The notes under the pieces are model-generated. The model saw nothing but the letters and a program-made list of their open reading frames with translations, was not told the origin of the DNA and did not search any database. From assembly GCA_016182045.1 (NCBI GenBank), contig JACOYE010000013.1:1-62628 (forward strand): a stretch of 62,628 bases of DNA. Reading direction: 5' to 3'. The DNA is from Candidatus Microgenomates bacterium (lineage in GTDB: Bacteria > Patescibacteriota > Microgenomatia > Daviesbacterales > UBA10151). The number at the start of each line of letters is the position of its first letter. The stretch's first letter is position 1. Position numbers and translations under genes: made by a program. This document shows positions 2,139-54,475 of this stretch, piece by piece.

Positions 2139-4019
2139 ATGCTTGTTAATCTCAATAAAAAACTGGAAAGGATGGATAGAATATATGTTAAACGGAAAAA
2201 AGGTCGTGGGTTAAAAAGAATTTTGGTGATTCTGATGATTTTAGTTGTCACTACTTTGGTGCCAGGATTCTTTATATTTACGGGTGCTAAGCAAACGATT
2301 AGTCATGGTAAGACATTGATTGCAGCATACAAAAGACAAAACTTTGATCAAATTCAAGATGAAACTTCCGCCATAAAATCCTCCTTTCAAAGGGTTGATT
2401 TTTCTTTAAATTTTCTTTTTTGGCTTAAGATTATTCCTTTTCTGGGAGGGTATTATCAGGATATTAAAGGTTTAACATCAGCTGGGGTTGAGGAGTTAAA
2501 AGCTGCTGAGATTATTTTTGACTCTCTTGAAGGCAATCAGGATGAGTTGGGATTTAGAGGAACGTCTTTATCTGGACCAGAGCGGGTTACTCAGAGTATC
2601 AAACTACTGGGAAAGACGCTACCCCTACTTCCTCAGATAGAAGAAAATCTAAAGAAGGCAGCGGATTCAGTAAAAAAAATAGACACGGGCAAATATCCAG
2701 AAACTATACGAGGTATCAAGATGAGAAGGCTTTTGGAAACAGCCAAAAATTTTATATTGGGGGTAGCTATAGCAGCAGAAGATGGTAGGGATGCCTTAAT
2801 GATAGCACCAAAAGCCTTAGGGTTGCCCAGCGCCAAAACTTATCTTCTTCTTTTCCAAAACGATAAGGAAATTAGACCAACCGGAGGATTCATTACTGCT
2901 TTTGCCACCCTTAAGATTGATCAAGGACAAATAGAATCTACCACTTCTGATGATATTTACAGATTAGATGAGAGGCTTTTGGCAACTTGTGAGTCAAAAA
3001 TTTGTCCCCTCACCCCTCCCCCCCCGATTGTCAAATATTTGCCAGAGGTAACAGGTAAACCAAGATCAGCTTGGAGTATGAGAGATTCCAATATCTCGCC
3101 TGATGTCCCAACTGCTGCCCGGGAATTTGAGAGAATGTATCAGCTTCTGGGAGCCGGTTTTCCTTTTGATGGCATCATCTATATTGATACTCAGGTGGTG
3201 GAGGAGATCATTGATGTAACAGGACCGATTGATGTTTTCGGCACCAAATATTCTGCTGAAATAGATAAACGTTGTAATTGTCCAAATGTAATATACGAGT
3301 TGGAATCATATGCCGAGATTGCTGCCAAAGGGGAGCAGGATCGAAAAGCTATTTTGGGGGTTCTGATGCAGCAGATTCTGGCCCGGGCTATGGGTAGTGA
3401 GGTGGAAAAACTGCCAGAGCTTTTGGAAACTGTGGCCAGGCTTGCTAATCACAAACATATCATGTTTTACATGCATGATTCTTCTGTGCAGAATGCTTTG
3501 TCTAAGCTTAACTGGATAGGTGAAATTAAAGCTTATGATGGAGACTATCTGCACATTAATGATTCTAATTTTGCCGGGGGAAAATCTAATCTTTATGTGA
3601 CTCAAGATGTGAGACAAGAAATAAAAGTTAATAATGGTAAAGTTACGAAAAAAATTACCATTGAATATAAAAATGATCAGCCTTTTAATACCTGGTTAAA
3701 TGCGATCAATCTGGATTATGTCAGATTTTATGTGCCAAAAGGAAGTAAGCTTGTATCTTCCAAGGGATCGGAAGTGACTGTGACCACCATTGAGGATCTG
3801 GGTAAAACTGTGTTTGAGGCATTTATTCAAGTTCGCCCGCAAAATTCCAGAAAATTGGAGATTGAATATGAAATACCATATCAGCCAAAGGAAGGGTATA
3901 AATTACTAATCCAAAAACAACCGGGGGCCAAAGATTTTAAGTATGAAGTTAAATTAAACGGAAAAAAAGTGGAGGATTTTGAATTAGATACTGATAAAGA
4001 GTTCAAGTTTCCGCTATAA
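2139..4019 (+). CDS. DUF4012-domain membrane-anchored protein
   Basis: N-terminal TM, YLLLFQNDKEIRPTGGF, RDSNISPDVP and DGIIYID motifs. Typical neighbour of glycosylation loci. Confidence 0.8.
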   Translation: MLVNLNKKLERMDRIYVKRKKGRGLKRILVILMILVVTTLVPGFFIFTGAKQTISHGKTLIAAYKRQNFDQIQDETSAIKSSFQRVDFSLNFLFWLKIIPFLGGYYQDIKGLTSAGVEELKAAEIIFDSLEGNQDELGFRGTSLSGPERVTQSIKLLGKTLPLLPQIEENLKKAADSVKKIDTGKYPETIRGIKMRRLLETAKNFILGVAIAAEDGRDALMIAPKALGLPSAKTYLLLFQNDKEIRPTGGFITAFATLKIDQGQIESTTSDDIYRLDERLLATCESKICPLTPPPPIVKYLPEVTGKPRSAWSMRDSNISPDVPTAAREFERMYQLLGAGFPFDGIIYIDTQVVEEIIDVTGPIDVFGTKYSAEIDKRCNCPNVIYELESYAEIAAKGEQDRKAILGVLMQQILARAMGSEVEKLPELLETVARLANHKHIMFYMHDSSVQNALSKLNWIGEIKAYDGDYLHINDSNFAGGKSNLYVTQDVRQEIKVNNGKVTKKITIEYKNDQPFNTWLNAINLDYVRFYVPKGSKLVSSKGSEVTVTTIEDLGKTVFEAFIQVRPQNSRKLEIEYEIPYQPKEGYKLLIQKQPGAKDFKYEVKLNGKKVEDFELDTDKEFKFPL

Positions 4020-9774: not shown

Positions 9775-11480
9775 TGCGAATATTTGTTATCAAGGTATTC
9801 TTTGCCATCTTTTTTATTGCAATTTTAGCTCGCCTCTTTTATTGGCAAGTAATTTCAGCGCAGCTGCTTCAGGCACGAGCAGAGGGACAATATTTTAAAG
9901 ATACAAAAGTTTTTGCCAAAAGAGGAAGTGTTTTTTTCTCGGACGGTTTTATTTTGGCTTCATCTAATCCAACTTTTAACTTGTATGGTTTACCAAAAGT
10001 TATATCTTCCGAAGAAAGAATGAATACTGCCTACACAATTGCCAAGATAGTACTGGGTAAAGAAAAGGTAGAAAAGGAGGTTGATTTGTTGGCGAAGGAT
10101 TTAGTCGATAAGCTGTCAAAGGACCTTTATTGGGTTCTGCTTGAGAAAAATGTCTCTTATGAGATAAAGAAAAAAATAGAACAGATCAACTTAAAGGGGG
10201 TTGGTTTTGAAACTTCATCCAGTCGTTTCTATCCGGAAGGATCATCTTCCGCCCATCTTTTGGGTTTTGTAGGTTCAGATGCAAAAGGCCAAGATACCGG
10301 CTATTTTGGATTGGAAGGATATTATGATGGAGAGCTTAAAGGGATTTCCGGACTGATCAGACATGAGAGGGATGCATTGGGTCTGCCTATTTTAATAGGA
10401 AGATTTTTAACGAGCAGTGCCAAAAATGGTAAAGATATTATTCTTAACTTGGATAGGTCTGTTCAGTTTATTGTGGAAGAAAATTTAAAAAAGGGAATGG
10501 AAAAATATGGTGCCAGAGCAGCATCGGCAGTGGTAATGGAGCCCAAAACAGGTAACATTTTGGCCATGGCTTCTTTCCCCAACTATCATCCGGCCAAATA
10601 TTTTGATTTTCCCAAAGAAGTTTACAAAAATCCGATTGTGGCAGACTCCTATGAACCAGGATCAACCTTTAAAGTGTTGGTGATGGCAGCAGCATTTAAT
10701 GAGGATTTGGTTGAGCCAGACACAATTTGTGATATCTGTGGCGCTCCTATCTCAATTGGGGGGTTTACTATACGAACATGGAATAATAAATATTTCCCGA
10801 ATACTGTTTTAAAAGATGTCATTATTCATTCAGATAACACTGGGATGGTATTTGTGGGAAAGAAATTGGGATTGGATAAGTTTTATTCCTATTTAGAAAA
10901 TTTTGGCTTAGGTAGTATTACCAATATTGATTTGCAAGATGAGTTCAGTCCGGAGATCAGACCAAAAAATGAGTGGAGAGAAATTGATTTGGCCACAGCA
11001 TCTTTTGGTCAGGGAGTGGCTGTCACACCTATTCAGATGATTAGAGCGGTGGCGGCAATTGCCAATGGAGGAAAGTTGATGGAGCCGCACATGGTAAAAG
11101 TGATCAAAGATGATCAAGGCAGCTTTGAAGTTAAACCAAAGGTGATCAGGCAAATAATCGGAGAGTCAACTGCCAAAATTATCACCGAGATGATGGTAGC
11201 CGCTGTTTCGGAGGGAGAGGCCAAGTGGGCCAAACCAAAAGGTTTTAAAATAGCCGGTAAAACCGGTACTGCCCAAATTCCAGTGGCCGGCCATTATGAT
11301 CCAAATAAAACAATTGCCTCATTTGTGGGATTTGCCCCAGCCGATGATCCTAAATTTGCCATATTAGTCCGCTACGATCAACCTTCAACTTCACCATATG
11401 GTTCAGAGACAGCTGCCCCAACCTTTTTTGAAATTGCCAAAGAACTTTTTAATTATTATAAAATTGCCCCAACTGAGTAG
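9771..11480 (+). CDS. ftsI: Class B penicillin-binding protein (FtsI/PBP2-type transpeptidase)
   Basis: EPGSTFK (SxxK), SDN (SxN) and KTGTAQ motifs, N-terminal TM, dcw position. Confidence 0.9.
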   Translation: MMRIFVIKVFFAIFFIAILARLFYWQVISAQLLQARAEGQYFKDTKVFAKRGSVFFSDGFILASSNPTFNLYGLPKVISSEERMNTAYTIAKIVLGKEKVEKEVDLLAKDLVDKLSKDLYWVLLEKNVSYEIKKKIEQINLKGVGFETSSSRFYPEGSSSAHLLGFVGSDAKGQDTGYFGLEGYYDGELKGISGLIRHERDALGLPILIGRFLTSSAKNGKDIILNLDRSVQFIVEENLKKGMEKYGARAASAVVMEPKTGNILAMASFPNYHPAKYFDFPKEVYKNPIVADSYEPGSTFKVLVMAAAFNEDLVEPDTICDICGAPISIGGFTIRTWNNKYFPNTVLKDVIIHSDNTGMVFVGKKLGLDKFYSYLENFGLGSITNIDLQDEFSPEIRPKNEWREIDLATASFGQGVAVTPIQMIRAVAAIANGGKLMEPHMVKVIKDDQGSFEVKPKVIRQIIGESTAKIITEMMVAAVSEGEAKWAKPKGFKIAGKTGTAQIPVAGHYDPNKTIASFVGFAPADDPKFAILVRYDQPSTSPYGSETAAPTFFEIAKELFNYYKIAPTE

Positions 11481-11595
11481 GCACAAAGGCTATCCAAAAT
11501 CCGCAGGTGTAAACGTATTCCACCCCAAGGGTGTAAGTGTAAGAATATACCATAAAATTGCTCCAAATTGAGTAAGTTTGGTTCTATCTGATATA

Positions 11596-11625
11596 TTGAC
11601 AAGAAATAAGGTGAAGAGTTATATT
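11596..11625 (+). promoter_or_regulatory. Sigma70-type promoter for the small DUF2795-like gene
   Basis: TTGACA (11596) -18 bp- TATATT (11620). A purine-rich AAGGAAGGGGGTGA RBS-like tract lies before the ATG. Confidence 0.75.
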
Positions 11626-11657
11626 TTCTCAGACCATAAAGGAAGGGGGTGAGAAAA

Positions 11658-11876
11658 ATGCAAAATGTTGCTTCAGCAATTGATCACCTAAAAACACATC
11701 AGACTTATCCAGCAACCAAAGCTCAGCTGGTGGCAGAATGTAACAACTTGTCCGATTTTTCAGAAGAGGATAAAACAGAGTTTGCTCAAAACCTTCCAGA
11801 AGGTAGCTACAACTCTGCTGATGATGTTGTAAAGGCACTGGGTTGGCAAACTCAACAACCACAACAAGCGATGTAG
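11658..11876 (+). CDS. Small helical protein, DUF2795/MTH865-like
   Basis: YPATKAQLV...LPEGSYNSADDVVKAL matches the YPA(T/S)K..L..LP...Y.S..DV pattern of DUF2795. Has its own promoter and RBS. Confidence 0.75.
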   Translation: MQNVASAIDHLKTHQTYPATKAQLVAECNNLSDFSEEDKTEFAQNLPEGSYNSADDVVKALGWQTQQPQQAM

Positions 11877-11908
11877 CCTAAGGGGAAACTTCTGTTATAA
11901 TAGGCTCA

Positions 11909-13135
11909 ATGAAAGAGATTATACGCTCATTATTTCCCCAGTGGATGATTAATAAATTTTATCATCTTCCGCGGGCTTTCTTGGCCTATATTTTTTACGG
12001 ATTCCCAACTAGAAACTTAACAGTCATTGGAGTGACCGGGACTGATGGCAAGACCACCACAGTCAATATGATTTATCAGGTTCTAAAATCTGCCGGAAAG
12101 AAAGTTTCCATGGTCTCAACAGTTAATGCTGTGGTGGGTGGTCAACGATACGATACAGGATTCCATGTGACTTCACCAGATCCTCTCTTGGTGCAAAAAT
12201 TTGCCAAAAAAGCTAAAGACAATGGCGATGAGTTCTTAATATTGGAAGTAACCTCACATGCTTTAGATCAGTACAGATTTTGGGGAATTAAATTTGATGT
12301 GGCAGTTATAACCAATGTTACCCATGAACACTTGGATTATCACAAAACTTTTGGAAATTACCTAAATACAAAATTTAAACTTATAAAAGATGTTAAATTT
12401 GCTGTAGTTAATGAAAATTTAAACAGATTGCCACGTCGCTTCGCTCCTCGCAATGACGATAATAAAAGAATGATTACATTTGGACACAACAGAGGAGATT
12501 TTAATCAGGAGGATATTAATTTAAAACTTAAAATACCCGGTGATTATAATGTTGAGAATGCTCTGGCTGCCATAGTAGCTGCTTCAGTTTTAGGTGTTAA
12601 TCAAGAAATAGCGCGTAAATCAGTGGAAAGCTTTAAGGGTATAGTGGGTAGAATGGAGGAGGTTAAAAACAGAAGAGGTTTCAGAATAGTTATTGATTAT
12701 GCCCATACTCCAAACGGTTTGGAGCAAGCCTTAAAAACTCTACGTTCGCAACATCCACAGGGGAAGTTAATCTCACTGATAGGTTGTGAAGGAAAAAGAG
12801 ATGTCGGTAAAAGAAGCTTGATGGGGGAGATTGCCACTAAATTATCTGATATGGTGGTGGTGACTGCAGTTGACCCTAGGGGTCAGATTGATACTATCAA
12901 CAGACAAATAAGTAATGGAGCCAAAAAAGCGGGAGCAAGAATGGATGAAAATTTTTTTATCATAGATGATAGAGCAAAAGCCATCGATTTTGCCATAAAC
13001 AGTTTGGCTAAAAAGGGAGACACGGTGGGAATTTTTGGTAAAGGTCATGAGAGGAGTATGAATCTGGATGGTAAAAAAGAGATACACTGGTCTGATGAGG
13101 AAGCTGTTAAAAAGGCTTTGAACAATGGACAATAA
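11909..13135 (+). CDS. murE: UDP-MurNAc-dipeptide amino-acid ligase MurE (short N-terminus)
   Basis: GVTGTDGKTTT, EVTSHALDQ, TNVTHEHLDYH, GRME, IDYAHTP, GKGHE. Confidence 0.9.
   Translation: MKEIIRSLFPQWMINKFYHLPRAFLAYIFYGFPTRNLTVIGVTGTDGKTTTVNMIYQVLKSAGKKVSMVSTVNAVVGGQRYDTGFHVTSPDPLLVQKFAKKAKDNGDEFLILEVTSHALDQYRFWGIKFDVAVITNVTHEHLDYHKTFGNYLNTKFKLIKDVKFAVVNENLNRLPRRFAPRNDDNKRMITFGHNRGDFNQEDINLKLKIPGDYNVENALAAIVAASVLGVNQEIARKSVESFKGIVGRMEEVKNRRGFRIVIDYAHTPNGLEQALKTLRSQHPQGKLISLIGCEGKRDVGKRSLMGEIATKLSDMVVVTAVDPRGQIDTINRQISNGAKKAGARMDENFFIIDDRAKAIDFAINSLAKKGDTVGIFGKGHERSMNLDGKKEIHWSDEEAVKKALNNGQ
12425..12457 (+). repeat. 33-bp REP-like element in frame inside murE
   Basis: AGATTGCCACGTCGCTTCGCTCCTCGCAATGAC. 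30/33 identical to the reverse complement of 48129-48161. Confidence 0.9.
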
Positions 13136-13715
13136 ATTAAAAATAATTGCCAACTACTTCGGCATGGATAGGGTTAAGTTTAACGAATCTATTGCTCAAT
13201 ATACCAGTTTAAATTTAGGAGGCCCTGCCAAATTATTTTTTATCGCTTTTACTAAAGGGGAGATTATAAAAATGGTTAAAGTTTGTAGAGAATTAAAGTT
13301 GCCTTTTTTTATTTTCGGTACAGGTTCAAAGATTATGCTCTCAGATATAGGTTTTGAAGGAGTAGTCATAAAAAATCGCACCAAAGATATTCATATCCTC
13401 TCTATCAAGGGTAAAGTTTCAAAAGTTGGTATTGGAGTTGATGAAGCTTTGGTTGAAGTAGACTCGGGAGTAAGCATTTCAAAATTTGTGGAATTTTTAG
13501 ATACTCAAGGACTAATGGCAGATGAGTTTAGACAAAGGCCTGGAAGTATTGGGGGGAATATTTTTTTAAATAAATCTTTGCAAAATAAGGTGAAAAGTAT
13601 TAAAGTATTAAATTTGAATTCATCAATCGAAGAAATAGGGGTAGAAAATTTGAGTTTTAAAAAACATATCATTTTGTCGGTAGCATTAAGAATTAAGACA
13701 AAAGAAAGAAAGTAA
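13125..13715 (+). CDS. murB: Truncated MurB-like FAD-binding protein (196 aa, no C-terminal catalytic domain)
   Basis: YTSLNLGGPAKLF, FGTGSKIMLSDIGFEGVVI and PGSIGG resemble the MurB N-terminus. The ORF stops 2 nt before murA. Confidence 0.75.
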   Translation: MDNKLKIIANYFGMDRVKFNESIAQYTSLNLGGPAKLFFIAFTKGEIIKMVKVCRELKLPFFIFGTGSKIMLSDIGFEGVVIKNRTKDIHILSIKGKVSKVGIGVDEALVEVDSGVSISKFVEFLDTQGLMADEFRQRPGSIGGNIFLNKSLQNKVKSIKVLNLNSSIEEIGVENLSFKKHIILSVALRIKTKERK

Positions 13716-13717
13716 AT

Positions 13718-14974
13718 ATGAAATATAAAGTTATCGGCGGACATCGACTGAGTGGAACAATTCGTGTCTCCGGAAATAAAAACTCGGTTTTTCCCTGCGT
13801 GGCTGCAGCACTATTAACTGAAGAAGAAGTAATTTTGGAAAATATTTCCGATATTTCAGATGTAGAAAGATTAATTGAGATTTTGAAAAAATTAGGTGTC
13901 GAAGTTCAAAAAAGTGGTCCAACTTTAAAAATTTTAGCCAGAGAAATAAAAAATACCAGCTTACCTAAGGATTTGATGGGGAAGTTAAGAGGCTCTATGG
14001 TTTTGGTGGGAGCAATACTTGCCAGGAAGAACAAAGTTCATTTTTATCATCCTGGGGGTGATGTGATTGGTAAAAGAAGTATTGAGACTCACCTTGAGGG
14101 ATTTAAAGGCTTGGGAGTGAATTTAAAAAGAGAAGATTTGGAATTTAGGTTAAATTATCAGGAAGATTTTAAAGATCGGGCTATTTTTTTTCTGGAGGCT
14201 TCTGTGACGGCCACGGAAAACTTAATTTTGGCATCTGTTTTGGGCAAAAGAGATGTGATCTTGAAAAATTGTCCTAAAGAACCGCATATTATTGATCTTT
14301 GTAAAATGTTAACTAGAATGGGAGCTAAAATTTTTGGAGTAGGAACAGATGCATTAAAAATTTCAGGTGTTGAAAAACTTAAGGGAGTTAAATTTAGGAT
14401 AGGGATTGATTATGTGGAGGTAGGGACATACGCAGTAGCGGCAGCTATCACAGGAGGAAGACTTACAATCAGCGGTATTGATGATACGGATTTGGATCCA
14501 ATATTTGAACCGTTAAAAAGATTTGGTATACACTCGGATTTTACAAAAGATACTATCACAATCCACTCTGGTAAATTAAAATCTGTTCCGAAGCTGACAA
14601 CCAATCTCTGGCCTGGATTTCCCACCGATCTGATGAGTGCTGCCATTGTTTTGGCGACTCAATCATCTGGGGTAACTTTGTGTCACGATTGGATGTATGA
14701 GGGAAGGATGTTTTTTGTTGATAAATTAATCTCAATGGGAGCAAAAATTATCTTGGCTGATCCTCATAGAGTATTTGTTTACGGATTAAGTAAGCTCAAG
14801 GGAAGAATACTGGAAACCCCGGATATTAGAGCAGGAATGGCTTTGGTTTTAGCCGCCCTCGTTGCCAAGGGTGAGTGTTTGATAAATCAGGCAGAATTGA
14901 TTGAGAGAGGTTATGAGGATGTGGTGGGGAAACTAAAAAAATTAGGTGCCCAAATAGAGAGAATTGATGTATAA
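13718..14974 (+). CDS. murA: UDP-GlcNAc 1-carboxyvinyltransferase MurA
   Basis: SGNKNS, LRGSM, PGGDVIGKRS, SVTATEN, PGFPTDL, PDIRAG, RGYE. Confidence 0.96.
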   Translation: MKYKVIGGHRLSGTIRVSGNKNSVFPCVAAALLTEEEVILENISDISDVERLIEILKKLGVEVQKSGPTLKILAREIKNTSLPKDLMGKLRGSMVLVGAILARKNKVHFYHPGGDVIGKRSIETHLEGFKGLGVNLKREDLEFRLNYQEDFKDRAIFFLEASVTATENLILASVLGKRDVILKNCPKEPHIIDLCKMLTRMGAKIFGVGTDALKISGVEKLKGVKFRIGIDYVEVGTYAVAAAITGGRLTISGIDDTDLDPIFEPLKRFGIHSDFTKDTITIHSGKLKSVPKLTTNLWPGFPTDLMSAAIVLATQSSGVTLCHDWMYEGRMFFVDKLISMGAKIILADPHRVFVYGLSKLKGRILETPDIRAGMALVLAALVAKGECLINQAELIERGYEDVVGKLKKLGAQIERIDV

Positions 14975-18303: not shown

Positions 18304-19206
18304 ATGAAAAAAATTAGTAAAATTCCTTGGGCAGAATCTATTTGGTTTTTTGACATAGATGATACTTTGATAGATACAGCCGGAACCACCTTGTCTGTAT
18401 CAGAAGGGATTATGAGAGTATTCCAGGCAAAACACACTGTGGAAGAGACACTAAGGGTTCGCGATAACTTTAATGATATTTTCAATCTAATGATGATAGG
18501 TTACAGAGTTAAAAATAAAGAGGATTGGCAACAAGTACCAGGAGAAAAGGAAGCATTTGAAAAACTCCTGCAAGATATAGGAAAGTCTCAGAATAGAGTA
18601 AAAGAAAGATATGGAACTTCTAAAAAATGGAGTAGAGAAGTTTTTATAAAATTTGCCGCAGATAAGACAGGTATACAAGTTACTCCAGAATTAGTACATG
18701 AGGCAGCAGATGCATACTGGGTTACTCTCACAGAACAAACCATGGTATATCCTCAGGCTTTTGATTTGATACAAGTAATCAAAAGACATAATCGGCCAAT
18801 TTATTTACTTACAAGCTCTGACGGAAGGCTAAATATGGATGATGAGGGACAGTTTGATTATGATCCTAGATACTCCGAAGCACTAAAAAGACAAAGAATA
18901 GAATTATTGAGGGAAAGAGGAGTTAATTTTAATGCTTTATCCATTGGTGATCCTGAAGATAAACCTCATCTAGATTTTTTTGAAAAGGCAATAAAAATAG
19001 CTGAACGTGATTTAGGAAAACCAATTGTTTTTAAGAATGCTATTATGGTTGGCGATTCTTTTGGGGGTGATTTGTAAACTCCCAAGGGAAAAATGAGATT
19101 TGGCCTAGTAGTGTTATTCCAAAAGGACAAAGAAGATACAGAGATCGTTGATGAACGTCAAATAATTACGGGAAAATTATCAGAAGTAGCTAATTTTTTA
19201 ATTTAA
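18304..19206 (+). pseudogene. HAD-superfamily hydrolase with an in-frame TAA at 19075
   Basis: Motif I FFDIDDTLIDT and motif IV MVGDSFGGDL* followed in the same frame by 42 more sense codons (TPKGKMRFGLVVLF...ANFLI*). Confidence 0.75.
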
Positions 19207-19217
19207 GGAGTCTCCTT
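19205..19217. repeat. REP palindrome AAGGAG-T-CTCCTT downstream of RAYT
   Basis: Direct reading of the sequence. Confidence 0.85.
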
Positions 19218-19223
19218 GTGAGG

Positions 19224-19907
19224 CTAAAAATCATTCTCTAAAGTCAAATCTTGAAGTATTTCAAAATCATCTTGTTCGCTTACAAAGGTTTGGTAAGAGA
19301 GTTTTGGGTTAGTTTTGGAAAAGTAATATAATACTTCATCTGGCTTTACCCATTCTGTTTTTCTTTTTCCTAAATACTCATCATATGAGCATGGTTGAGT
19401 TTGCAAGGAGTCTCCTTGCAAACTCAACGCTTGTTTATGGATATAGCGGGATAGATGAAGAAATTGATTTTCGTGAGTAATTAAAACTGCTTTGTATACA
19501 TCTTGAAATAATGAACCTACCCTGTTGTATTTACGATTAAAATACATAGTGTACCTTGTACATAATGATCTCATAAATTTATTAATTGTTTGGGCTGATT
19601 TTTGTTTAATAAAGAAATGAAAGTGATTGGGCATTAAACAATAGGCAATTAAAGATACTTCATCAGCAAAATTATTTAATCTAAGTTTTTTTAATATCGT
19701 ATCCTTTTCCCTGTAAGAAACACTTGGATCTCCAAGCATTTTTCTTAAAGTTTCCTCATCCTTGGGCAGTAAATATTCTTTTAAATATCCCAGGAATACT
19801 CCATAATCCTGTTCATCTATAAAAATTGTCCTCTTCTCAACCCCGCGATTATATAAGTGGTAATAACTATCATCTACATACATTTTCAGAGAATTACGTG
19901 CCGGCAT
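19224..19907 (-). CDS. REP-associated tyrosine transposase (RAYT, IS200-like Y1_Tnp)
   Basis: YYHLYNRGVEKRTIF, LIAYCLMPNHFHF (HUH), YFNRKYNRVGSLFQ, SRYIH. Confidence 0.92.
   Translation of the reverse strand: MPARNSLKMYVDDSYYHLYNRGVEKRTIFIDEQDYGVFLGYLKEYLLPKDEETLRKMLGDPSVSYREKDTILKKLRLNNFADEVSLIAYCLMPNHFHFFIKQKSAQTINKFMRSLCTRYTMYFNRKYNRVGSLFQDVYKAVLITHENQFLHLSRYIHKQALSLQGDSLQTQPCSYDEYLGKRKTEWVKPDEVLYYFSKTNPKLSYQTFVSEQDDFEILQDLTLENDF
19394..19428. repeat. Perfect 35-bp palindrome inside the RAYT coding sequence
   Basis: GTTGAGTTTGCAAGGAG-T-CTCCTTGCAAACTCAAC, 17-bp arms. Confidence 0.95.
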
Positions 19908-19937: not shown

Positions 19938-19953
19938 CACAAGGAGTCTCCTG
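19938..19953. repeat. REP palindrome copy upstream of RAYT
   Basis: CACAAGGAGTCTCCTG. Confidence 0.8.
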
Positions 19954-29806: not shown

Positions 29807-30118
29807 ATGTTAAAATATGCAATTTGCCAAATTTCGGGAAAGCAATATCAGGTTTTTCCAAACAAAATTTTAGAGGTTGATTTTCTAGGTGAGGAAATTA
29901 AAAATATTGAGGTTAATGTTTTGTTGCTTTGTGAAGATGGGAAGATTAAATTGGGAAAGCCTTTTCTAAAAGAAAAGTTAAACTTAAAAGTTTTAGATCA
30001 TAAAAAGGGAGAAAAGATTAGGATTGCGAAATTTCATGCCAAAGCTAATTTTAGACGATTAAAAGGTTTTAGACCAAAATATACGAATATTTTATGGGAT
30101 GTGAAAAAGATATATTGA
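29807..30118 (+). CDS. rplU: 50S ribosomal protein bL21
   Basis: YAICQISGKQYQV, KGEKIRIAKF, GFRPKYT. Confidence 0.92.
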   Translation: MLKYAICQISGKQYQVFPNKILEVDFLGEEIKNIEVNVLLLCEDGKIKLGKPFLKEKLNLKVLDHKKGEKIRIAKFHAKANFRRLKGFRPKYTNILWDVKKIY

Positions 30119-30143: not shown

Positions 30144-30219
30144 CCACTTGCCCTTGTCAAAAATTGTCAAATAGAGCAATTTTTGCAAGCGATCTCGCGC
30201 GCAAGGAGGCGCGCTCCGA

Positions 30220-30465
30220 TTGGCTCATAAAACAGGCGGATCAACAACCAGAAAAAATAGAGATTCAATCTCCAAGAGATTGGGTGTCAAAAAATATGGT
30301 GGCGAAAAGGTAATGCCAGGTAATATTATTGTCCGCCAAAAAGGAACAAGGTTTTATCCAGGTGCAGGTACCGAGCAAGGTAATGACTACACAATTTTTG
30401 CTACCTCTTCCGGGAAGATTCTCTTTAAGAAAAAGTTAAACAAAACTTATATTGTTGTAGCTTAA
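30220..30465 (+). CDS. rpmA: 50S ribosomal protein bL27 (TTG start)
   Basis: AHKTGGSTTRKNRDSISKRLGVK, GNIIVRQKGT. Confidence 0.94.
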   Translation: MAHKTGGSTTRKNRDSISKRLGVKKYGGEKVMPGNIIVRQKGTRFYPGAGTEQGNDYTIFATSSGKILFKKKLNKTYIVVA

Positions 30466-30473
30466 GCTAATTT

Positions 30474-31364
30474 ATGGATCAAGATCAAGTTTTTGAGTTA
30501 GAAATTGATTTGCTTCAACCAAATCCTTTACAACCCAGAGGTCTGATCACTCCTGAGTCATTATCAGAGCTGGCGGAGTCTATCAGAGCTCATGGTATTT
30601 TAGAGCCATTAGTGGTTGCCAAAACACCGGCTGGTTTCCAAATTATCGCTGGCGAAAGACGATGGAGAGCTGCCAGGGTGGTGGGATTAGGCAAGGTGCC
30701 AGTTATAATTAGGGAAACCAGTCCTCAAGGTATGCTGGAGATGGCTATTGTGGAAAATGTTCAAAGGATAGATCTTAATCCTCTGGAACGCGCTCAAGCC
30801 TACAAAAGGTTGATGGAGGAGTTTGGGTTATCCAATGGAGAAATTTCAGAAAGAGTTTCCAAGTCCCCTTCCTATATTTCAAACACCATCAGACTGTTAA
30901 CTTTACCTGACGCTATAAAAGATGCACTGATGTCCGGTGCAGCCACCGAAGGTCATGCCAGAGCTCTGGCAGCCCTGGAGGATCCCCGTTTGATCATCGA
31001 GGGCTATAAGGAAGTTTTAAAGAGAAACTTGTCGGTAAGAGGTACTGAGGAATTGGTTAGAAGAATGAGGGCCCAGCAGGGAATAGGCCCCAGAAAATCA
31101 GCTATTACCGAATCAATGCATATTGTTTCCGACCAGTTGGATCAAATTCAATCTGATCTAGTTTCCACTCTTTCTCAAAGAATAGCAAAATCATCCGTAA
31201 AATGTATTCAGACCGGTAAAAAAGCCAAGCTGGAAATATTGGTTGAGGGTGATCCTAATCTCACAACTCCTTTACTTGAAGATATGCGTCAGGCAATTGT
31301 GGGATATTTTAGGCTTAAGGAACAGAACGAACCAAGCCAAAATCCCCTGGAGGCCAATATCTGA
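30474..31364 (+). CDS. parB: ParB/Spo0J partition protein
   Basis: PNPLQPR, GILEPLVV, IIAGERRWRA, IVENVQRIDLNPLE, GHARAL. Confidence 0.93.
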   Translation: MDQDQVFELEIDLLQPNPLQPRGLITPESLSELAESIRAHGILEPLVVAKTPAGFQIIAGERRWRAARVVGLGKVPVIIRETSPQGMLEMAIVENVQRIDLNPLERAQAYKRLMEEFGLSNGEISERVSKSPSYISNTIRLLTLPDAIKDALMSGAATEGHARALAALEDPRLIIEGYKEVLKRNLSVRGTEELVRRMRAQQGIGPRKSAITESMHIVSDQLDQIQSDLVSTLSQRIAKSSVKCIQTGKKAKLEILVEGDPNLTTPLLEDMRQAIVGYFRLKEQNEPSQNPLEANI

Positions 31365-39863: not shown

Positions 39864-41167
39864 TTTAGCTCATCTGATAATTTATAGCCCTTGATGAAAA
39901 TTAAGAATCCAATGAGGGTGGCAAAACCTGCAATTGGTCCAATCAGACGAATGCCTAATGAATGAGTAGTGGTGGCTCCGAAGAGTGATAGAGAGGTGCC
40001 AAATATTAAACTTGATAAAGCAAAGGAAAATTTTTGCAAGGTATTTTGCATGCCATAATATATGGCTTCACGTCTAAGTCCTGTTTTTGTTTCGTCATAA
40101 TCTATCACATCCGCCAAAATGGCATTAGGGAAAACAAATTGGCCGGCAAGAGCTATTCCAATTAGAGCTACCAAAATAAATGTTTGAATAATCGGGGTGG
40201 TTAGGGGAATAAGTCCTACAAAAGCAAGCAGTGGAAAAAGCAGGGAAAGGGTAAACATGGAGCGGGAATAGGCCCATTTTTTACCATAGATTTTTGCCAA
40301 AAGATTGTGAGCTGGTAAAGAGATGACCATGCTGGTTAAGAGTATGCCCATAAACAGCGCCACCCATCCTTCAGAAAGATTAAGAACGATTGTGGTATAA
40401 AAGGGTACCAAAGCGGTTAAAAGATTAAGACCCAAAGAGAAAAGGATAAAAGCAAAAGAGAATACTAAAAATTGTTTGTTTCTTAAGGTAGCAATTAATG
40501 CCTGATAAAGATTTAAATTTTTGACAATTTTCCGCTCGAGGAGAATTTTGTCAATTTTCTTCCTGATTCCCAAAATGGCAATCCAAAAGGCAATAAGTCC
40601 GATAATTCCCAAACTTGCGCCCATTGCCAAAAAACCAAACCGCTGGATTAACAGAGCGGATCCAACAAGACCTATCCCAGCCCCAATTACCCCGAAGAGC
40701 ACTCTCCATGCAGAGGTTGAGACCCGATCTTTGGATGTTTTAGCAATCTCTGGCAAAATGCCCTCATAAGGTGCGGATACTATGGTATAAGTTAAGAAGA
40801 AAAACTGTAGGACAATGAAAAAATAAATGGCATTTATGGTGGTCTGATTTGGGGTTGGAGAAAGCCACAACAGAAAAAAACTTAAAGCTAAAAAGGGTGC
40901 CCCCAAAAATATATAAGGGAATCTTCTGCCCCAGCGGGATTTTGTTCTATCAGATAAATGACCAATTAAAGGATCATCAAAAGCTTCAATAAATCTACCG
41001 ATACCCAAAAGAACTCCTAAAAGGCCCAGTGGAATTAACGCCTTATTTGGATCACCCCTGCCTGCCCAAAAGAAGATCAACCAAGCAGTTAGGGCCTGAA
41101 AAGTGACATTTTCCCCCAAGCCACCTATGGCAAAAATTATTTGATCTTTAACTGGTAGACTTTTCAT
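39860..41167 (-). CDS. MFS transporter, GPH/MelB (MFS_2) family
   Basis: EAFDDPLIGHLSDRTKSRWGRRFPYI and ADVIDYDETKTGLRREAIYYG. About 12 TM segments. Confidence 0.92.
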   Translation of the reverse strand: MKSLPVKDQIIFAIGGLGENVTFQALTAWLIFFWAGRGDPNKALIPLGLLGVLLGIGRFIEAFDDPLIGHLSDRTKSRWGRRFPYIFLGAPFLALSFFLLWLSPTPNQTTINAIYFFIVLQFFFLTYTIVSAPYEGILPEIAKTSKDRVSTSAWRVLFGVIGAGIGLVGSALLIQRFGFLAMGASLGIIGLIAFWIAILGIRKKIDKILLERKIVKNLNLYQALIATLRNKQFLVFSFAFILFSLGLNLLTALVPFYTTIVLNLSEGWVALFMGILLTSMVISLPAHNLLAKIYGKKWAYSRSMFTLSLLFPLLAFVGLIPLTTPIIQTFILVALIGIALAGQFVFPNAILADVIDYDETKTGLRREAIYYGMQNTLQKFSFALSSLIFGTSLSLFGATTTHSLGIRLIGPIAGFATLIGFLIFIKGYKLSDELK

Positions 41168-41522
41168 CTAATATGGCCACAAATTGGGCAATAACATAAT
41201 TGCCGTCGTGAGAAATGGATAGGGAAGAATTGAAAATTGAAAATTGCCCGCTTCGCCGCGAGGCGAGAAAATTGAAAATTTTAGCTTGGGGTGCACCATC
41301 TGGTTGGTGGGTAATCTGAATATTATGCCATGAGTTTGGAGGGAGGGATAAGGCTTTTATTGCTGCTTCCTTAGCTGCGAAAATTCCAGCCAGATGCTCA
41401 AGTTGTTGATTTTCCAGTTCTTTTGCCAGGAAAACTCTTCTTAAAAAATTTTCTCCGCCATTTTTGAGAGCATTTTTAAATCGTGGTAGATATATCAGAT
41501 CAACTCCTGTTAATATTTTCAT
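41148..41522 (-). CDS. acpS: Holo-ACP synthase
   Basis: GVDL, LAGIFAAKEAAIKAL, GAP, SISHDGNYVIA. Confidence 0.92.
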   Translation of the reverse strand: MKILTGVDLIYLPRFKNALKNGGENFLRRVFLAKELENQQLEHLAGIFAAKEAAIKALSLPPNSWHNIQITHQPDGAPQAKIFNFLASRRSGQFSIFNSSLSISHDGNYVIAQFVAILDEKSTS

Positions 41523-46781: not shown

Positions 46782-46808
46782 AGATTGCTTCGTTACACTC
46801 GCAATGAC
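46782..46808 (+). repeat. REP-like element (AGATTGC...CTCGCAATGAC family)
   Basis: AGATTGCTTCGTTACACTCGCAATGAC. Confidence 0.85.
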
Positions 46809-46836: not shown

Positions 46837-47790
46837 ATGGCAACTGTTAACACTGCTTGGGATCATGTTTCAGGGAATATTTTCAAAACATGGTTAATCA
46901 TGTTTTTCTTTTCCGCGTTCACTGTAGGAGTTATTTATGTAATAGCCCGTGGTTTTGGGTATGGAGAAGTAGGGGGGTTAGGGATTGTGGGATTTGCTTT
47001 GATTATGGCTGGAGTAATGAATTTTATTTCTTACTACTGGTCAGATAAGATCGTTTTAGGAATATCTGGAGCAAAGTCTATCGAGAAAAAGGATAACCCT
47101 GAAGTTTATAGAATTGTGGAGAACCTTTGTATTGCTGCAGGCTTACCCTTACCCAAAATTTATATCATTGATGATACTGCCACCAATGCTTTTGCCACAG
47201 GTAGAGACCCCAAGCATGCAGCCATTGCTTTTACTAAAGGAATTTTACAAAAACTTAATAAGCACGAGTTGGAAGGAGTCACTGCTCATGAGTTGTCTCA
47301 TGTAGGAAACAGAGACACTTTGCTGATGGCAGTTGTGTCAGTATTGGTGGGAACAATTGCTCTGCTGGCTGATTTTTTCTTAAGAAGTATGTTCTATGGT
47401 GGTAGAGATAGAGAGGGGAGAGGAAATCAGTTATTTGTTATTTTGGCCATTGTAGCAGCCATACTGGCTCCGATTGTGGCAACTTTAATCCAACTGGCAG
47501 TATCCAGAAGAAGAGAGTTTTTAGCGGACGCATCAGGAGTACTACTGACTAGGTATCCACAAGGTTTAGCCAATGCCTTGTTGAAAATTTCAGCCGATAA
47601 GGAGCCTTTGGAAGTGGCCAATCGTGGGACAGCCCACTTATATATAGTTAACCCCCTAAAAGGGCAGGAAGCCAAACAATGGCTGGTTGGTCTTTTTAAT
47701 ACCCATCCTCCCATTCAAGCCCGGATAAAAGCTCTTCAGGAAATGGAAGGTTTGTCCGCCGAAGCTTCAGCAAAGGCGGGAAAAGTTTAG
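46837..47790 (+). CDS. htpX: M48 zinc metalloprotease HtpX
   Basis: NAFATGR, GVTAHELSH (HExxH), SRRREFLAD, THPP. Confidence 0.94.
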   Translation: MATVNTAWDHVSGNIFKTWLIMFFFSAFTVGVIYVIARGFGYGEVGGLGIVGFALIMAGVMNFISYYWSDKIVLGISGAKSIEKKDNPEVYRIVENLCIAAGLPLPKIYIIDDTATNAFATGRDPKHAAIAFTKGILQKLNKHELEGVTAHELSHVGNRDTLLMAVVSVLVGTIALLADFFLRSMFYGGRDREGRGNQLFVILAIVAAILAPIVATLIQLAVSRRREFLADASGVLLTRYPQGLANALLKISADKEPLEVANRGTAHLYIVNPLKGQEAKQWLVGLFNTHPPIQARIKALQEMEGLSAEASAKAGKV

Positions 47791-47802
47791 TATAATCCAA
47801 AT

Positions 47803-48096
47803 ATGAAATTGACAGAAGAGCAGGTAAAACATGTAGCTAAACTTGCCAATTTACCACTTACATCTGAGGAAGAAGAGAAATATTCGGAGCAGCTCTCTAA
47901 AATCCTTGATTATATAGAGCAATTAAACTCAGTTGACACCAAAGATGTGGAACCTACTTTTAATGTTTCAGGTCAGAGTAATGTAATGAGTGAAGATACA
48001 ACTGTTCCTTCACTATCACAAGAAGATGCATTATTGAATGCCTCCAAAAAAGAGAAAGGATTTTTTGTGACAAAAGGAGTATTTGAGGAAGAATAA
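47803..48096 (+). CDS. gatC: Asp/Glu-tRNA amidotransferase subunit C
   Basis: VKHVAKLANL, LSKILDYIEQL, DVEPT. Confidence 0.95.
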   Translation: MKLTEEQVKHVAKLANLPLTSEEEEKYSEQLSKILDYIEQLNSVDTKDVEPTFNVSGQSNVMSEDTTVPSLSQEDALLNASKKEKGFFVTKGVFEEE

Positions 48097-48161
48097 GATT
48101 GCCACGCCACTTCGTGGCTCGCAATGACGTCATCGCGAGGAGCGTAGCGACGTGGCGATCT
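48096..48161. repeat. Tail-to-tail doublet of 33-bp REP-like elements (BIME-like)
   Basis: AGATTGCCACGCCACTTCGTGGCTCGCAATGAC + GTCATCGCGAGGAGCGTAGCGACGTGGCGATCT. Confidence 0.9.
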
Positions 48162-48170
48162 AATTAAATC

Positions 48171-49459
48171 ATGGACGTAACTAAATTAACCTTAACAGAG
48201 ACTTTAGACGCCTTAAAAAGAAAAGATTTTTCTGAAGAGGAATTAAACAATGCTTATTTGGATAGCATTAATACTCTAAATTCAAAGCTAAATATTTTTT
48301 TAGAAGTTAAAAAAAATACTCGCGGTATACCTGCGGCAATTAAAGATGTAATTATAACCCGAGGAATTAAAACTACAGCGGGGTCAAAAATTTTGAGTAA
48401 TTTTATACCTCCATATAATGCTACAGTAATGGATAGACTTTCGGAACAAAATATTTCTGTTATTGGAAAGACCAATTGTGATGAGTTTGCAAAGTTACAG
48501 GTGGATCTTCCAGTGGTTCAGCTGCGGCCGTTGCTGCTGATCTCTGTGTATTTGCTCTTGGTTCTGATACAGGTGGTTCAATACGTCAACCTTCGTCGCT
48601 TTGCGGAGTGGTGGGTTTAAAATCAACTTATGGTCGTGTCTCAAGGTATGGTTTAATTGCCATGGCTTCATCTTTAGACTCAATAGGTCCAATTACTAAA
48701 TCCGTGGAAGATGCGGCTTTAGTATTAGAATGGATTTCTGGTCCTGATGGATATGACTCCAACTCTACGAGAGAAAAGTTTATGATGCAACCTTCGAGGT
48801 TGAAAGCTGGATTAAAGGGTTTAAAAGTAGGAGTACCTAAGGAATATTTTGGAGAAGGTTTGGACCCTAAAATGAAAAAAATAATTGAGGAGGCAATTAA
48901 AAAGCTTGAGGAGTTAGGTGCAGAAATAGTTGAGGTGAGTTTGCCTCACAGCCCATATGCTTTAGCAACATATTACATAATCGTTCCTTCTGAAGTTTCT
49001 TCTAATATGGCCAGGTATGATGGGATTAGATTTGGTGGTAGTAGGGAGGATATTGGACCAGAGGTTAAAAGAAGAATAATGCTGGGAACTTATGCTCTAT
49101 CTTCTGGCTATTATGATGAGTATTATGCAAAGGCTGCCAAAGTCAGAACTTTAGTAAAAAAAGATTTTGAAATAGTCTTTGAGAAAGTGGATGTCATAGT
49201 TGGTCCGGTCTCCCCCACCACAGCATGGAATTTAGGAGAAAAGATAAACGATCCCTTAACAATGTATTTATCTGATATTTACACCATTTCTGCTAATTTA
49301 GCAGGCATTCCAGGATTGTCTATTCCTTGTGGATTTTCTGACGGATTGCCTGTGGGTCTTCAGATTTTAGGGAAACAATGGGATGAAGAGACAATATTAA
49401 GAGTTGGTTATGCGTATGAACAAGTAACAGAGTGGCATAAGGAGAAACCCAAACTATGA
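48171..49459 (+). pseudogene. gatA: gatA with an internal deletion and frameshift at about 48490 (real lesion or assembly error)
   Basis: GKTNCDEF(A) joins out of frame to [15 protein letters not shown]...DTGGSIRQP. The usual MGSS-ENS...T-NPW segment is absent. Confidence 0.85.
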
Positions 49460-50860: not shown

Positions 50861-50895
50861 AGATCCTTCGCTAACGCTCAGGACGGCTCATGACA
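50861..50895 (+). repeat. REP-like element related to the AGAT..CTTCG..CTC..ATGAC family
   Basis: AGATCCTTCGCTAACGCTCAGGACGGCTCATGACA. Confidence 0.55.
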
Positions 50896-53900: not shown

Positions 53901-54475
53901 ATTTGTCAAAACTAAACTTATTAGGTCGATTTGTTAGTTGCAGACTGGTTGATTTGACTGATAATTATATTGGACAAAAATTAAGTTTGGGTGGAGTAAT
54001 TACGGAAGTAAAAAAAGTTTTAACCAAAAGGAGTGCTCAGGAGATGGCCTTTATTAGAGTGTCTGATGGGATGTCGGATATTGAAGCAGTGGTGTTCCCC
54101 GCCACTTTTGCCCAATCCAAGGATTTTTTAGCCAGGGACCAGGTAGTTCTGATTGCCGGAAGAGTTGACAAAAGAGAGGAGGAACTATCCTTAGTTTGTG
54201 AGACTATTGATCTTTTTGACCCGCAAAATATGGAAAATTTGGATATTGAGAACCTGGTTGAAATATATGTTCCTTCCGGTACGGATGTGACTACCCTGCA
54301 GTCTATTAACAGGACTTTAAGAGGACATCCGGGAGATGTACCGGTGGTTTTGCTATTACCTAATGGGGGATCGGAGCTTAGAAGAATGAATTTGCCATTT
54401 TCCATTAGTCCTAACCCAACCCTTCAGGAAGAGATTAGAAAGCTTTTAGGTAAGGAGTCTTTCAGGCGCTTGTAG
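50909..54475 (+). CDS. dnaE: DNA polymerase III alpha subunit
   Basis: FVHLHGHTEYSLLDG, GRGS-like TRGSAAGS, PDIDAD, KMDFLG, FNKAHA, IRFGL, OB fold. Confidence 0.97.
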   Translation: MSRFVHLHGHTEYSLLDGLSKIPKLVKTVKDFGMDAVAITDHGVMYGAIEFYKQCRDAGIKPIVGVELYVAKRSHKDKEGKLDSEPFHLTVLAKNYQGYLNLMKLTTLAHVEGYYYRPRVDKKLLKEFSEGLIALSGCPSSEFIRSLHDPKKAEEVAKSYLEIFGEGNFYFELQRHPYQDNLEVAKDEIVIKELQDLVKIQQMMERGVLELSPKLGIPIVATNDFHYIQKDDAEAQDALLCIQTGKFIQDSNRLRMIDTPDYYVKSAKEMAEDFADLPQAVENTLKIANMVDLEIPLGVARFPLFQTPAGLSSMEYLKELTYRKAGEKLELTPEVNKRLEYELGVIEKKKYADYFLVVWDFMEWAHQNGVITTTRGSAAGSLVLYCLGVTNLNPLDYLLPFERFLTVERPTLPDIDADMADDKRDQVIKYVMDKYGDDKVAHIVTFGTMMGRAAIRDVGRVLGLSYAEVDRIAKLIPPPHQGFHKPLPDAIREVPELAQFYRNDPQVKRLLDLAIKIEGTIRHASVHAAGIVIAPEEITNFTPLQKESNGDKLVTQYDMFAVEDAGLVKMDFLGIRNLSILGGAVEFVRENRGLDVDINNIPLNDKKAFELLSKGETMGIFQLEGSGMTRYLVDLKPKNIFDIQAMVALYRPGPMSVIPEYIARKQNVQKIQYFDPRMKEFTETSLGLLIYQDDVLLTAINIAGYSWEEADKFRKAMGKKIPTEMAKQKGKFVDGCVKNGMRRAKAEELFSLIAPFAAYGFNKAHAASYAMVAYQTAYMKANFPVEFMAAAMTAESSDTDKIAAAIDECKRLEIVVLPPDINKSEVGFSLEKLKSLTKEDLDRSLSVEVGMEKSEVKLATRSEQGIRFGLSAIKNVGEGAIDSIHKAREEEEFTSLWDLCSRVDTRLVNRKTLESLIKAGALDNLGKRSAQLLILDQCLEESHKLNKNKLSGQVSLFEGRDDLGSLVIKLPEVEEMPLEQLLAFEKDLLGFYLHEPPYLSKLNLLGRFVSCRLVDLTDNYIGQKLSLGGVITEVKKVLTKRSAQEMAFIRVSDGMSDIEAVVFPATFAQSKDFLARDQVVLIAGRVDKREEELSLVCETIDLFDPQNMENLDIENLVEIYVPSGTDVTTLQSINRTLRGHPGDVPVVLLLPNGGSELRRMNLPFSISPNPTLQEEIRKLLGKESFRRL

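Follow-up and report, generated by a model that had tools for sequence, protein, structure and literature searches.

In Neisseria, the hairpin repeat NTS (CGTCATTCCCGCGMAVGCGGGAATCYRG) has been generalised to the SRMs, hairpin repeats that flank genes for small single-domain GIY-YIG nucleases of single-stranded DNA (ssDNA), exemplified by SsnA; the Neisseria repeat dRS3 belongs to the same group of repeats (Chenal et al., Nat Commun 2025, PMC11893778). The three bases 5' of the NTS palindrome (the GTC flank) are needed for cleavage and the C 3' of it for binding by SsnA, and the NTS/Ssn system modulates the integration of transforming DNA in Neisseria (PMC11893778). The heptamer GCGNAGC has been described as an extraordinarily stable ssDNA mini-hairpin (PMC13037366). 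Here we analyse a stretch of 62,628 nt, called the window below (contig JACOYE010000013.1 of assembly GCA_016182045.1, from a Candidatus Microgenomates bacterium of the Daviesbacterales), where a short repeat unit lies in frame inside murE, the gene for the essential UDP-MurNAc-tripeptide synthetase. A previous sequence-only reading had taken this unit for a repetitive extragenic palindromic (REP) element, plausibly mobilised by a REP-associated tyrosine transposase (RAYT). We find that it is probably no REP and that its layout agrees with that of the NTS/SRM hairpin repeats, which are linked to GIY-YIG Ssn nucleases. Our preferred reading, to which we give a probability of about 0.65, is that a solo SRM-like unit from a family spread across phyla is embedded in a dispensable linker of murE, where it is translated and tolerated, and that this allele had a single origin and travelled between lineages as a recombination patch.

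The unit occupies positions 12425-12457 of the plus strand (AGATTGCCACGTCGCTTCGCTCCTCGCAATGAC), within the open reading frame (ORF) at 11909-13135, and is translated as RLPRRFAPRND, residues 173-183 of MurE; its position, its frame and its 11 codons are as first described. The canonical reading is that of the minus strand (GTCATTGCGAGGAGCGAAGCGACGTGGCAATCT), with the layout CGTCAT-TGCGAGGAGCGAAGCGACGTGGCAAT-CT, and combines a 5-bp outer stem (ATTGC/GCAAT) with the GCGAAGC mini-hairpin. Five of its six reading frames are open. Compared with the reverse complement of 48129-48161, it is identical at 30 of 33 positions, and this is the sole other site of the window at three mismatches or fewer. 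No match to the unit appeared in 100 dinucleotide-preserving shuffles of the window, and the resemblance between the two copies is thus confirmed as non-random.

A profile built from 18 units of the family and searched with nhmmer gives four matches in the window. The first is the murE unit (12426-12457, E 4e-8). Two others (48097-48128 and 48129-48160, E 8.6e-7 and 1.9e-6) form a head-to-head doublet, with 48096-48128 on the minus strand and 48129-48161 on the plus strand, an imperfect palindrome of 66 nt that separates gatA from the stop codon of gatC; the ssDNA folding energy of 48090-48167 is -17.3 kcal/mol (z -3.2). The fourth (46783-46808, E 0.0025) is a shorter form, GTCATTGCGAGTGTAACGAAGCAATCT, at 46782-46808 on the minus strand, directly 3' of the stop of a LemA-family gene. 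Of the relatives proposed before, the one in the doublet (48096-48129, 85% identity over 34 nt) and the short form at 46782 are therefore retained. The third, ..GTCCTGAGCGTTAGCGAAGGATCT at 50861-50894 on the minus strand (GTCCTGAGCG..CGAAGGATC), is missed by the profile and is a distant relative, by architecture only. These intergenic copies adjoin gene ends: one follows the stop codon of the LemA-family gene, the doublet follows that of gatC, and the distant relative lies between gatB and dnaE. The length of 33 bp, a multiple of three, holds for the murE copy, but not for the family, whose units vary from 26 to 33 nt. Directly 3' of the doublet, gatA (48171-49459) is split into two ORFs, with a shift of frame after ...NCDEFA and about 20 conserved residues apparently missing; inactivation to a pseudogene, variation between strains and a fault in the assembly are all conceivable.

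Searches with looser motifs are less telling. The bare decamer TCGCAATGAC occurs 4 times in the window for 1.8 expected, which is no enrichment. The heptamer GCGAAGC occurs 5 times for 2.0 expected (8 of 100 shuffles had at least as many), which is not significant alone, and two of these sites are in ordinary coding sequence. A generic scan for GTCAT followed by a 7-bp stem and ATC gave 3 matches for 1.0 expected in Markov shuffles and is too loose, so that the significance of the unit rests on sequence identity and on the profile. Rfam models matched tRNAs only and none of the units. None of the intergenic units is a sense-strand terminator, and the murE site is not terminator-like either.

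The family extends well beyond the window. An exact 24-mer of the unit, searched in one genome per GTDB species, gave at least 120 genome matches in 12 or more phyla. Among the matches listed are Alpha-, Beta- and Gammaproteobacteria, Bacillota, Planctomycetota, Nitrospirota, Desulfobacterota, Omnitrophota, Chloroflexota, Bacteroidota, Spirochaetota, Marinimicrobia, Aminicenantes and Patescibacteria, the latter including a Daviesbacterium (locus L130). The family is thus not specific to this lineage. The 24-mer is also present in 93 viral or proviral contigs of IMG/VR (loci L208-L287), several of which have 2-3 copies, and no GIY-YIG gene was found next to the 24-mer in these 93 contigs; viral contigs are a possible route for its spread across phyla.

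Two features connect these units with the NTS/SRM repeats. All four units of the window start with GTCAT, as do those of the loci L001, L004, L130, L093, L131 and L177, which fits the (H)GTC(W)(Y) flank, and a cytosine directly follows the palindrome in every unit (...GGCAAT-C-T). An SRM also has a palindromic core of 20-50 nt that can fold into a hairpin in ssDNA. In this respect the family is uneven: the hairpins of the two L004 units, which lie in the MurE of a locus described below, fold at -7.8 and -6.4 kcal/mol (z -5.0 and -3.1), and the doublet of the window folds strongly, but the solo murE unit folds weakly (see below). The neighbourhood of the units in three phyla points the same way. 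In a Chryseobacterium (L177), a GIY-YIG gene at 583-900 lies between a unit at 548-579 and another at 913-944; in an Oscillospiraceae metagenome-assembled genome (MAG; L093), units of the same subtype are found on both sides of a GIY-YIG gene; and in a Phycisphaerae MAG (L131), two units precede such a gene and a truncated GTCATTGCGAG.. copy follows it. The proteins encoded by these flanked genes have about 100 residues and match PF01541 at 54-61 bits.

We then considered the protein that hosts the unit. The murE gene (11909-13135, plus strand) encodes 408 residues that match TIGR01085 at 362.6 bits (cutoff 257.3), as well as PF08245 (Mur_ligase_M) and PF02875 (Mur_ligase_C). Its closest homologs are only 71% identical and are named Candidatus Daviesbacteria in their sources; they include that of L001, which like L002, L003 and L130 is a Daviesbacteria locus. 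The gene lies in a division and cell wall (dcw) cluster, with ftsI, a murB-like gene, murA, murF, mraY, ftsW and murG as neighbours, and the same neighbours are found in L001-L003. The N-terminal domain is missing from MurE of the window and from all Daviesbacteria orthologs, which have about 390-420 residues. In an alignment of 67 Daviesbacteria sequences, MurE of the window keeps 80 of the 80 invariant columns. Its AlphaFold model has a mean pLDDT of 85.8 and matches solved MurE structures with Foldseek TM scores of 0.80-0.83.

Mapped onto this model, the unit is predicted to fall in a low-confidence linker between two strands of the central ATP-binding domain (FAVVN, residues 164-168, and RMITFG, residues 187-192), after the conserved Asn168. 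The pLDDT is 62-66 locally and below 50 at residues 182-185, and no other internal stretch of the model is this low. The spacing between N168 and T190 ranges from 7 to 29 residues among the 67 Daviesbacteria proteins, and the segment is hypervariable in both length and sequence. In a wider comparison with 80 MurE genes of the candidate phyla radiation (CPR) and with T. maritima 4BUB, the same segment reads N-x-D-D, then a short helix-like xSYxxLkxx, then G-K-i-T-Y-G. The clean 11-residue indel expected by the sequence-only reading is not demonstrable, because the segment is hypervariable among orthologs.

The murE repeat is shared by several divergent Daviesbacteria. L001 has a 27-nt form, AGATTGCCACGCTTCGCTCGCAATGACG, at the same site and with the same flanks, and L002 and L003 have a decayed copy, AGATTGTTACGCAATGCTTCCAATGACG, again at this site and between these flanks, in an intact murE. 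A neighbour-joining tree of the 67 MurE proteins was star-like and placed the three carriers apart, not as sisters; it was too unresolved to be used, and a test for a patch at synonymous sites was made in its place. In residues 145-205, third codon positions are identical between the window and L001 at 44 of 58 codons, against 161 of 347 elsewhere (p 2e-5), and between L001 and L002 at 39 of 55, against 179 of 346 (p 0.006). The window and L002, compared at codons for the same amino acid only, agree at 24 of 32 against 113 of 233 (p 0.004); these p-values are indicative only, since the interval was picked after a sliding-window profile. Among 33 pairs that have no repeat in common, taken as controls, none showed a comparable rise. 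This suggests that the murE repeat allele had one origin and spread by homologous recombination, as a patch of about 180 bp, to at least three divergent Daviesbacteria lineages.

From these results, the following course of events may be proposed. The family unit would be a GTCAT flank, an ATTGC...GCAAT palindrome around GCGAAGC and a final C, a unit that elsewhere stands beside Ssn-type GIY-YIG genes. One copy would have lodged in the murE linker that follows the Asn168 strand, where the canonical protein has a short helix and Daviesbacteria tolerate 7-29 residues, and it may have arrived by insertion or by templated replacement. Since five of six frames are open, we propose that a copy whose length keeps the frame is just read as a disordered peptide on the protein surface and leaves MurE functional; the peptide itself would be neutral. 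The partner of the family would be an Ssn-type nuclease, whose gene is unseen in the window, rather than the Y1 protein discussed below. The allele would have arisen once, the patch then moving between lineages by homologous recombination.

Several observations weigh against this account. With the repeat, the segment of the window exceeds that of canonical MurE by just 2-8 residues, a small difference which implies that the repeat sits in place of a dispensable ancestral element, so that the event may have been a replacement rather than an insertion. An empty-site allele, which would show the boundaries of an insertion and any target duplication, was not found among the orthologs examined. The solo unit folds weakly (-3.6 kcal/mol, z +0.5, with nearest-neighbour DNA parameters), but the energy model may lack a bonus for the GCGNAGC loop. 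The published SRM string, HGTCWYN(0-2)YYVSBRHN(0-5)WNVSBRGN(0-2)RNCYNB, matched none of the units; a scan of the window on both strands gave a single site, at 18866, which is unrelated. The mismatch lies at the YY positions, where the stem has TTGCG and not TTCCC. NCBIfam and the PDB gave no finer class for the flanked GIY-YIG proteins, which are candidates for the Ssn class (cd10448). GIY-YIG genes are absent from the window itself and from about 1 Mb of CPR sequence surrounding murE. Finally, the copies of the window and L001 are still at the family consensus in spite of about 29% protein divergence, and neutral tolerance alone does not explain this. The reason may be that the patch recombined recently, that other copies converted these two, or that selection acts on the DNA.

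The same loop holds other repeats in other CPR lineages, as seen in loci sampled through murE, a sampling that is biased toward this gene. In L004, whose MurE is 66% identical to that of the window, the loop contains two other GTCAT hairpins (GTCATTCCTGCGAAAGCAGGAATC and GGATCCTGAATCAAGTTCAGGATGAC). L205 and L206 have a GTCC...GGAC palindrome there. In L083 (40% identical), a GC core (TCTCGCCTCGCGGCGAAGCGGGCAA) lies between (AATTTCT)2 arms, and its 25 nt are the same as those of a core found in AcpS of the window (see below). In-frame heptamer arrays of 33 nt occupy the loop in L055 (10522-10554) and L012 (4617-4649), and shorter runs do so in L011 (1988-2007) and L025 (10504-10518). No further heptamer arrays occur in the 4-21 kb fetched around each of these genes, which means that such arrays are not locally abundant. 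We also gave up the notion of a hairpin concealed in every CPR MurE loop, as stems of at least 8 bp occur in about 5 of 84 loops for about 3 expected. In L032, an NTS-like GTCATTCCCGC...GCGGGAATC unit stands directly after murE, and inverted doublets of GTCATTGCGA-type units lie on both sides of an ORF of 329 residues (11180-11275, 13336-13407 and 14372-14443).

How might such units have come to murE, and why are they kept? If the unit were a REP, or part of a REPIN, its mobiliser would be the RAYT-like Y1 (IS200-type) transposase encoded by a single-copy gene at 19224-19907 (minus strand), between ftsW and murG. This protein is 66% identical to one encoded at the same position in L001, which matches PF01797 at 45.7 bits; in L002 and L003, where the murE copy is decayed, no Y1 gene is found at the ftsW-murG position. 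The doublet at 48096-48161 does resemble a REPIN, and in L130 a Y1 homolog (1824-2462) lies about 660 bp from a unit in the gene of the prepilin peptidase PilD. The palindromes that adjoin the Y1 genes tell against it, however. In the window, AAGGAGTCTCCTT flanks the gene at 19205-19217 and 19941-19953 and recurs in frame inside it at 19405-19417, whereas in L001 both the upstream and the internal palindrome are GCAAGGCCWGGCCTTGCAAGGC (L001 12297 and 12844), which means that gene and hairpin co-vary. The homologs in L130, L012, L034 and L046 each lie between yet other palindromes, on both sides, and none of the palindromes of these six genes is of the GTCAT type. Because every Y1 gene examined is adjoined by palindromes other than the murE unit, we conclude from the sequence comparisons that these genomes probably have a REP-RAYT system and that its cognate repeats are palindromes other than the unit in murE. 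Moreover, this unit lacks a 5' tetranucleotide of the GTAG type, and the Y1 protein scores 38.6 bits with the NCBIfam model REP_Tyr_transpos, below its cutoff of 80, with no finer class from NCBIfam or the PDB. REP families are normally species-specific, and the 24-mer of the unit is identical across phyla, in three of which murE-type units flank GIY-YIG genes. The origin as a RAYT-mobilised REP is thus not supported, and we hold it to be quite improbable.

It is also conceivable, though unlikely in our view, that the unit is maintained by selection on DNA or RNA, for example as an Ssn site that limits or directs ssDNA recombination in the dcw cluster, or as a structure that affects murE expression. 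The copies at consensus in the window and L001 speak for it, together with the raised synonymous identity of the surrounding 60 or so codons, the role of NTS/Ssn in the integration of transforming DNA (PMC11893778) and the unusual stability of the GCGAAGC mini-hairpin in ssDNA (PMC13037366). Yet the copy of L002 and L003 (AGATTGTTACGCAATGCTTCCAATGACG) has decayed while murE is intact, most Daviesbacteria MurE genes have no such unit, the solo unit folds weakly, there is neither an Rfam match nor a terminator-like site in murE, and recombination of a patch in the recent past explains the synonymous pattern equally well. A similarly low weight goes to the suggestion that the MurE loop is an active target into which hairpin and heptamer repeats insert preferentially because of some DNA feature of the site. 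At least five types of repeat have been found in this one loop (the GTCATTGCGAG unit in the window, L001 and L002, the L004 hairpins, GTCC...GGAC, the L083 core and the heptamers), and the same two classes of repeat recur in AcpS and in PilD, where each protein has them at a single site. However, the insertion points of different lineages lie up to about 10 codons apart, neither a common target sequence nor a duplication can be seen at the loop, the loci were all fetched through murE, and purifying selection on an essential enzyme of 400 residues would alone confine the survivors to one dispensable segment. Given the differing insertion points and the lack of a common target, we favour a selection filter, acting through the sole dispensable segment of MurE, over site-specific targeting. 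Lastly, the contig comes from a metagenome, where repeats can cause mis-joins, and one may ask whether the resemblance is due to chance, to a chimeric assembly or to a native MurE sequence that gave rise to the intergenic copies. We give this almost no credence: none of the 100 shuffles produced a match, neither the reading frame nor any invariant residue of MurE is disrupted, the independent assemblies of L001, L002 and L003 have the same arrangement, and the 24-mer is found outside murE in hundreds of unrelated genomes. A translated, tolerated SRM-like unit that spread with a recombination patch remains our preferred reading.

MurE is not the only protein of this lineage with repeat DNA in its coding sequence. 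In about 1.07 Mb of CPR DNA we counted about 22 GTCAT-type units, of which those inside genes are found only in murE and in the prepilin peptidase of L130. In the latter (PilD, 2526-3437, minus strand), the unit at 3121-3152 is identical to the murE unit at 32 of 32 positions, and it is the opposite strand that is read, as VIARSEATWQS. As in MurE, the loop that holds it is hypervariable. This peptide occurs in three PilD orthologs of the alignment; others have variants of it, many have peptides of the NFQFSIFNFQ type, and the shortest have nothing. By analogy with the DNA of AcpS and MurE, the NFQFSIFNFQ-type peptides would be readings of heptamer arrays, the PilD DNA having been seen for L130 only.

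A cassette of the other class, (AATTTTC)2-TCGCCTCGCGGCGAAGCGGGCAA-(TTTTCAA)2, lies at 41226-41280 (minus strand), in frame in the holo-ACP synthase gene acpS (41148-41522), where it is read as KIFNF-LASRRSGQ-FSIFN. Among 55 AcpS orthologs, the base state is I.N.KF.I.N, from tandem heptamers, and varied peptides from GC hairpins appear in the middle of the array, including PAGKAG, FASPRGE, SLRG and LPVPSEVEGS. In L301 the entire cassette is in the opposite orientation. In DnaE (50909-54475), a perfect hairpin with a 7-bp GC stem (GCTCGCT-ACGCGA-AGCGAGC; AGCTCGCTACGCGAAGCGAGCAA, 53478-53500, plus strand) encodes KLATRSEQ, and the closest ortholog (P0361, 77% identical) has a gap of 8 residues there, in a region that varies across DnaE. 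The window has one copy of this hairpin and the loci fetched have none, and we found no family to which it belongs. The general claim of the sequence-only reading, that core proteins of this lineage gain peptide insertions from repeats, is thus borne out by PilD, AcpS, DnaE and the MurE loops of other CPR, and the comparison of these sequences supports the extended view that repeat DNA, selfish or linked to nucleases, is rewriting protein loops here. Within the same window, a GC hairpin at 47756-47780 (CCGCC..GGCGG) encodes the C-terminal ...SAEASAKAGKV of an M48 peptidase and looks repeat-derived.

A much broader picture can be offered tentatively, and we would not wager on it as a whole. Two classes of ssDNA-hairpin cassettes, the GTCAT-type SRM-like units and the GC cores set on arrays of AT-rich heptamers, might repeatedly colonise, flip and replace one loop per essential protein (MurE, AcpS, PilD, DnaE) in Daviesbacteria and Microgenomates, and perhaps in CPR generally. 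They would spread by short recombination patches, and an active turnover with site preference, more than a passive tolerance of selfish DNA, could proceed through hairpin-specific nucleases or replication slippage.

A few features around murE and the Y1 gene deserve mention in their own right. Between ftsI and murE, the window has an insert of 430 bp (11481-11908) that is missing in L001-L003. It contains a small ORF (11649-11876) with a weak match to DUF2795 (21.3 bits, below the cutoff), as well as, at 11519-11537, a CCACCCCAAGGGTGTAAG palindrome like those beside the Y1 genes of L130 and L046. The 3' end of ftsI is nearly duplicated, around 11460-11480 and around 11550-11575. Beside the Y1 gene, an ORF for a HAD-type hydrolase (18304-19077) ends early and coding-like sequence appears to go on in another frame (19078-19223), which may reflect a frameshift. 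Elsewhere, a GC-rich intergenic palindrome (GCGCGC-AAGGAG-GCGCGC) lies at 30185-30228, between the ORFs 29807-30118 and 30474-31364. At 360-495, across the start of a glycosyltransferase gene (444-1451), 68 nt are perfectly duplicated in tandem, which could reflect either a recent event or an artefact of the assembly.

These observations join two things known separately, the in-gene palindromic repeats of Rickettsia (Rickettsia palindromic elements, RPEs) and the Ssn/SRM hairpin repeats. SRM-type units would be translatable inside essential enzymes, and essential genes of CPR would show an RPE-like behaviour. CPR genomes are tiny and are usually called streamlined and poor in mobile DNA, and SRM-type units appear to be present even there. 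The same protein loops are hit repeatedly by different repeats, and they offer concrete sites at which to ask how the repeats move, whether Ssn or Y1 proteins act on them and how much of the diversity of protein loops in uncultivated bacteria is repeat-derived. They also carry a warning for annotation: RLPRRFAPRND, VIARSEATWQS, FSPRGEAG and NFQFSIFNFQ, when found in metagenomic proteins, are best regarded as read-through repeat DNA and not as protein motifs.

Among known systems, the murE unit is closest to the NTS/SRM repeats. It shares with them an oriented GTCAT 5' flank, a palindrome that runs from ATT.. to ..AAT with a C after it, and a loop of the GCGNAGC/GCGNNAGC type, as well as a multi-copy, cross-phylum distribution, often next to genes, with the same subtype on both sides of single-domain GIY-YIG genes of about 100 codons. 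It differs in its stem (ATTGCGAG.. against the published ATTCCCGC..), in the lack of an Ssn gene in the window and in the few copies there (4 in 62.6 kb); translated copies inside essential genes, and CPR bacteria, are not described in PMC11893778. The stable mini-hairpins GCGNAGC/GCGNNAGC (PMC13037366) are found at the centre of several of our elements: GCGAAGC is central in the murE unit, in the AcpS core and in the DnaE hairpin, and GCGAAAGC is central in one L004 unit. That work concerns the biophysics of oligonucleotides, and describes neither a genomic repeat family nor a mechanism of mobility.

The likeness to REP/REPIN-RAYT systems lies in the short GC-rich palindromes, in the inverted doublets at gene ends and in the single-copy, syntenic Y1 gene of the window, but here the Y1 genes are flanked by other palindromes, and the murE unit, which is without a GTAG-type head, is identical across phyla. 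The RPEs (Ogata et al., Science 2000; PMC10969869) are likewise palindromic repeats found in frame in unrelated housekeeping genes and translated where the fold tolerates them. They measure about 100-150 bp, encode conserved peptides of about 30-50 residues and are confined to Rickettsia (PMC10969869), whereas the units of the murE family have 26-33 nt, encode 9-11 residues and are found in many phyla. The murE unit thus differs from an RPE in size and in peptide, and what the two have in common is their behaviour.

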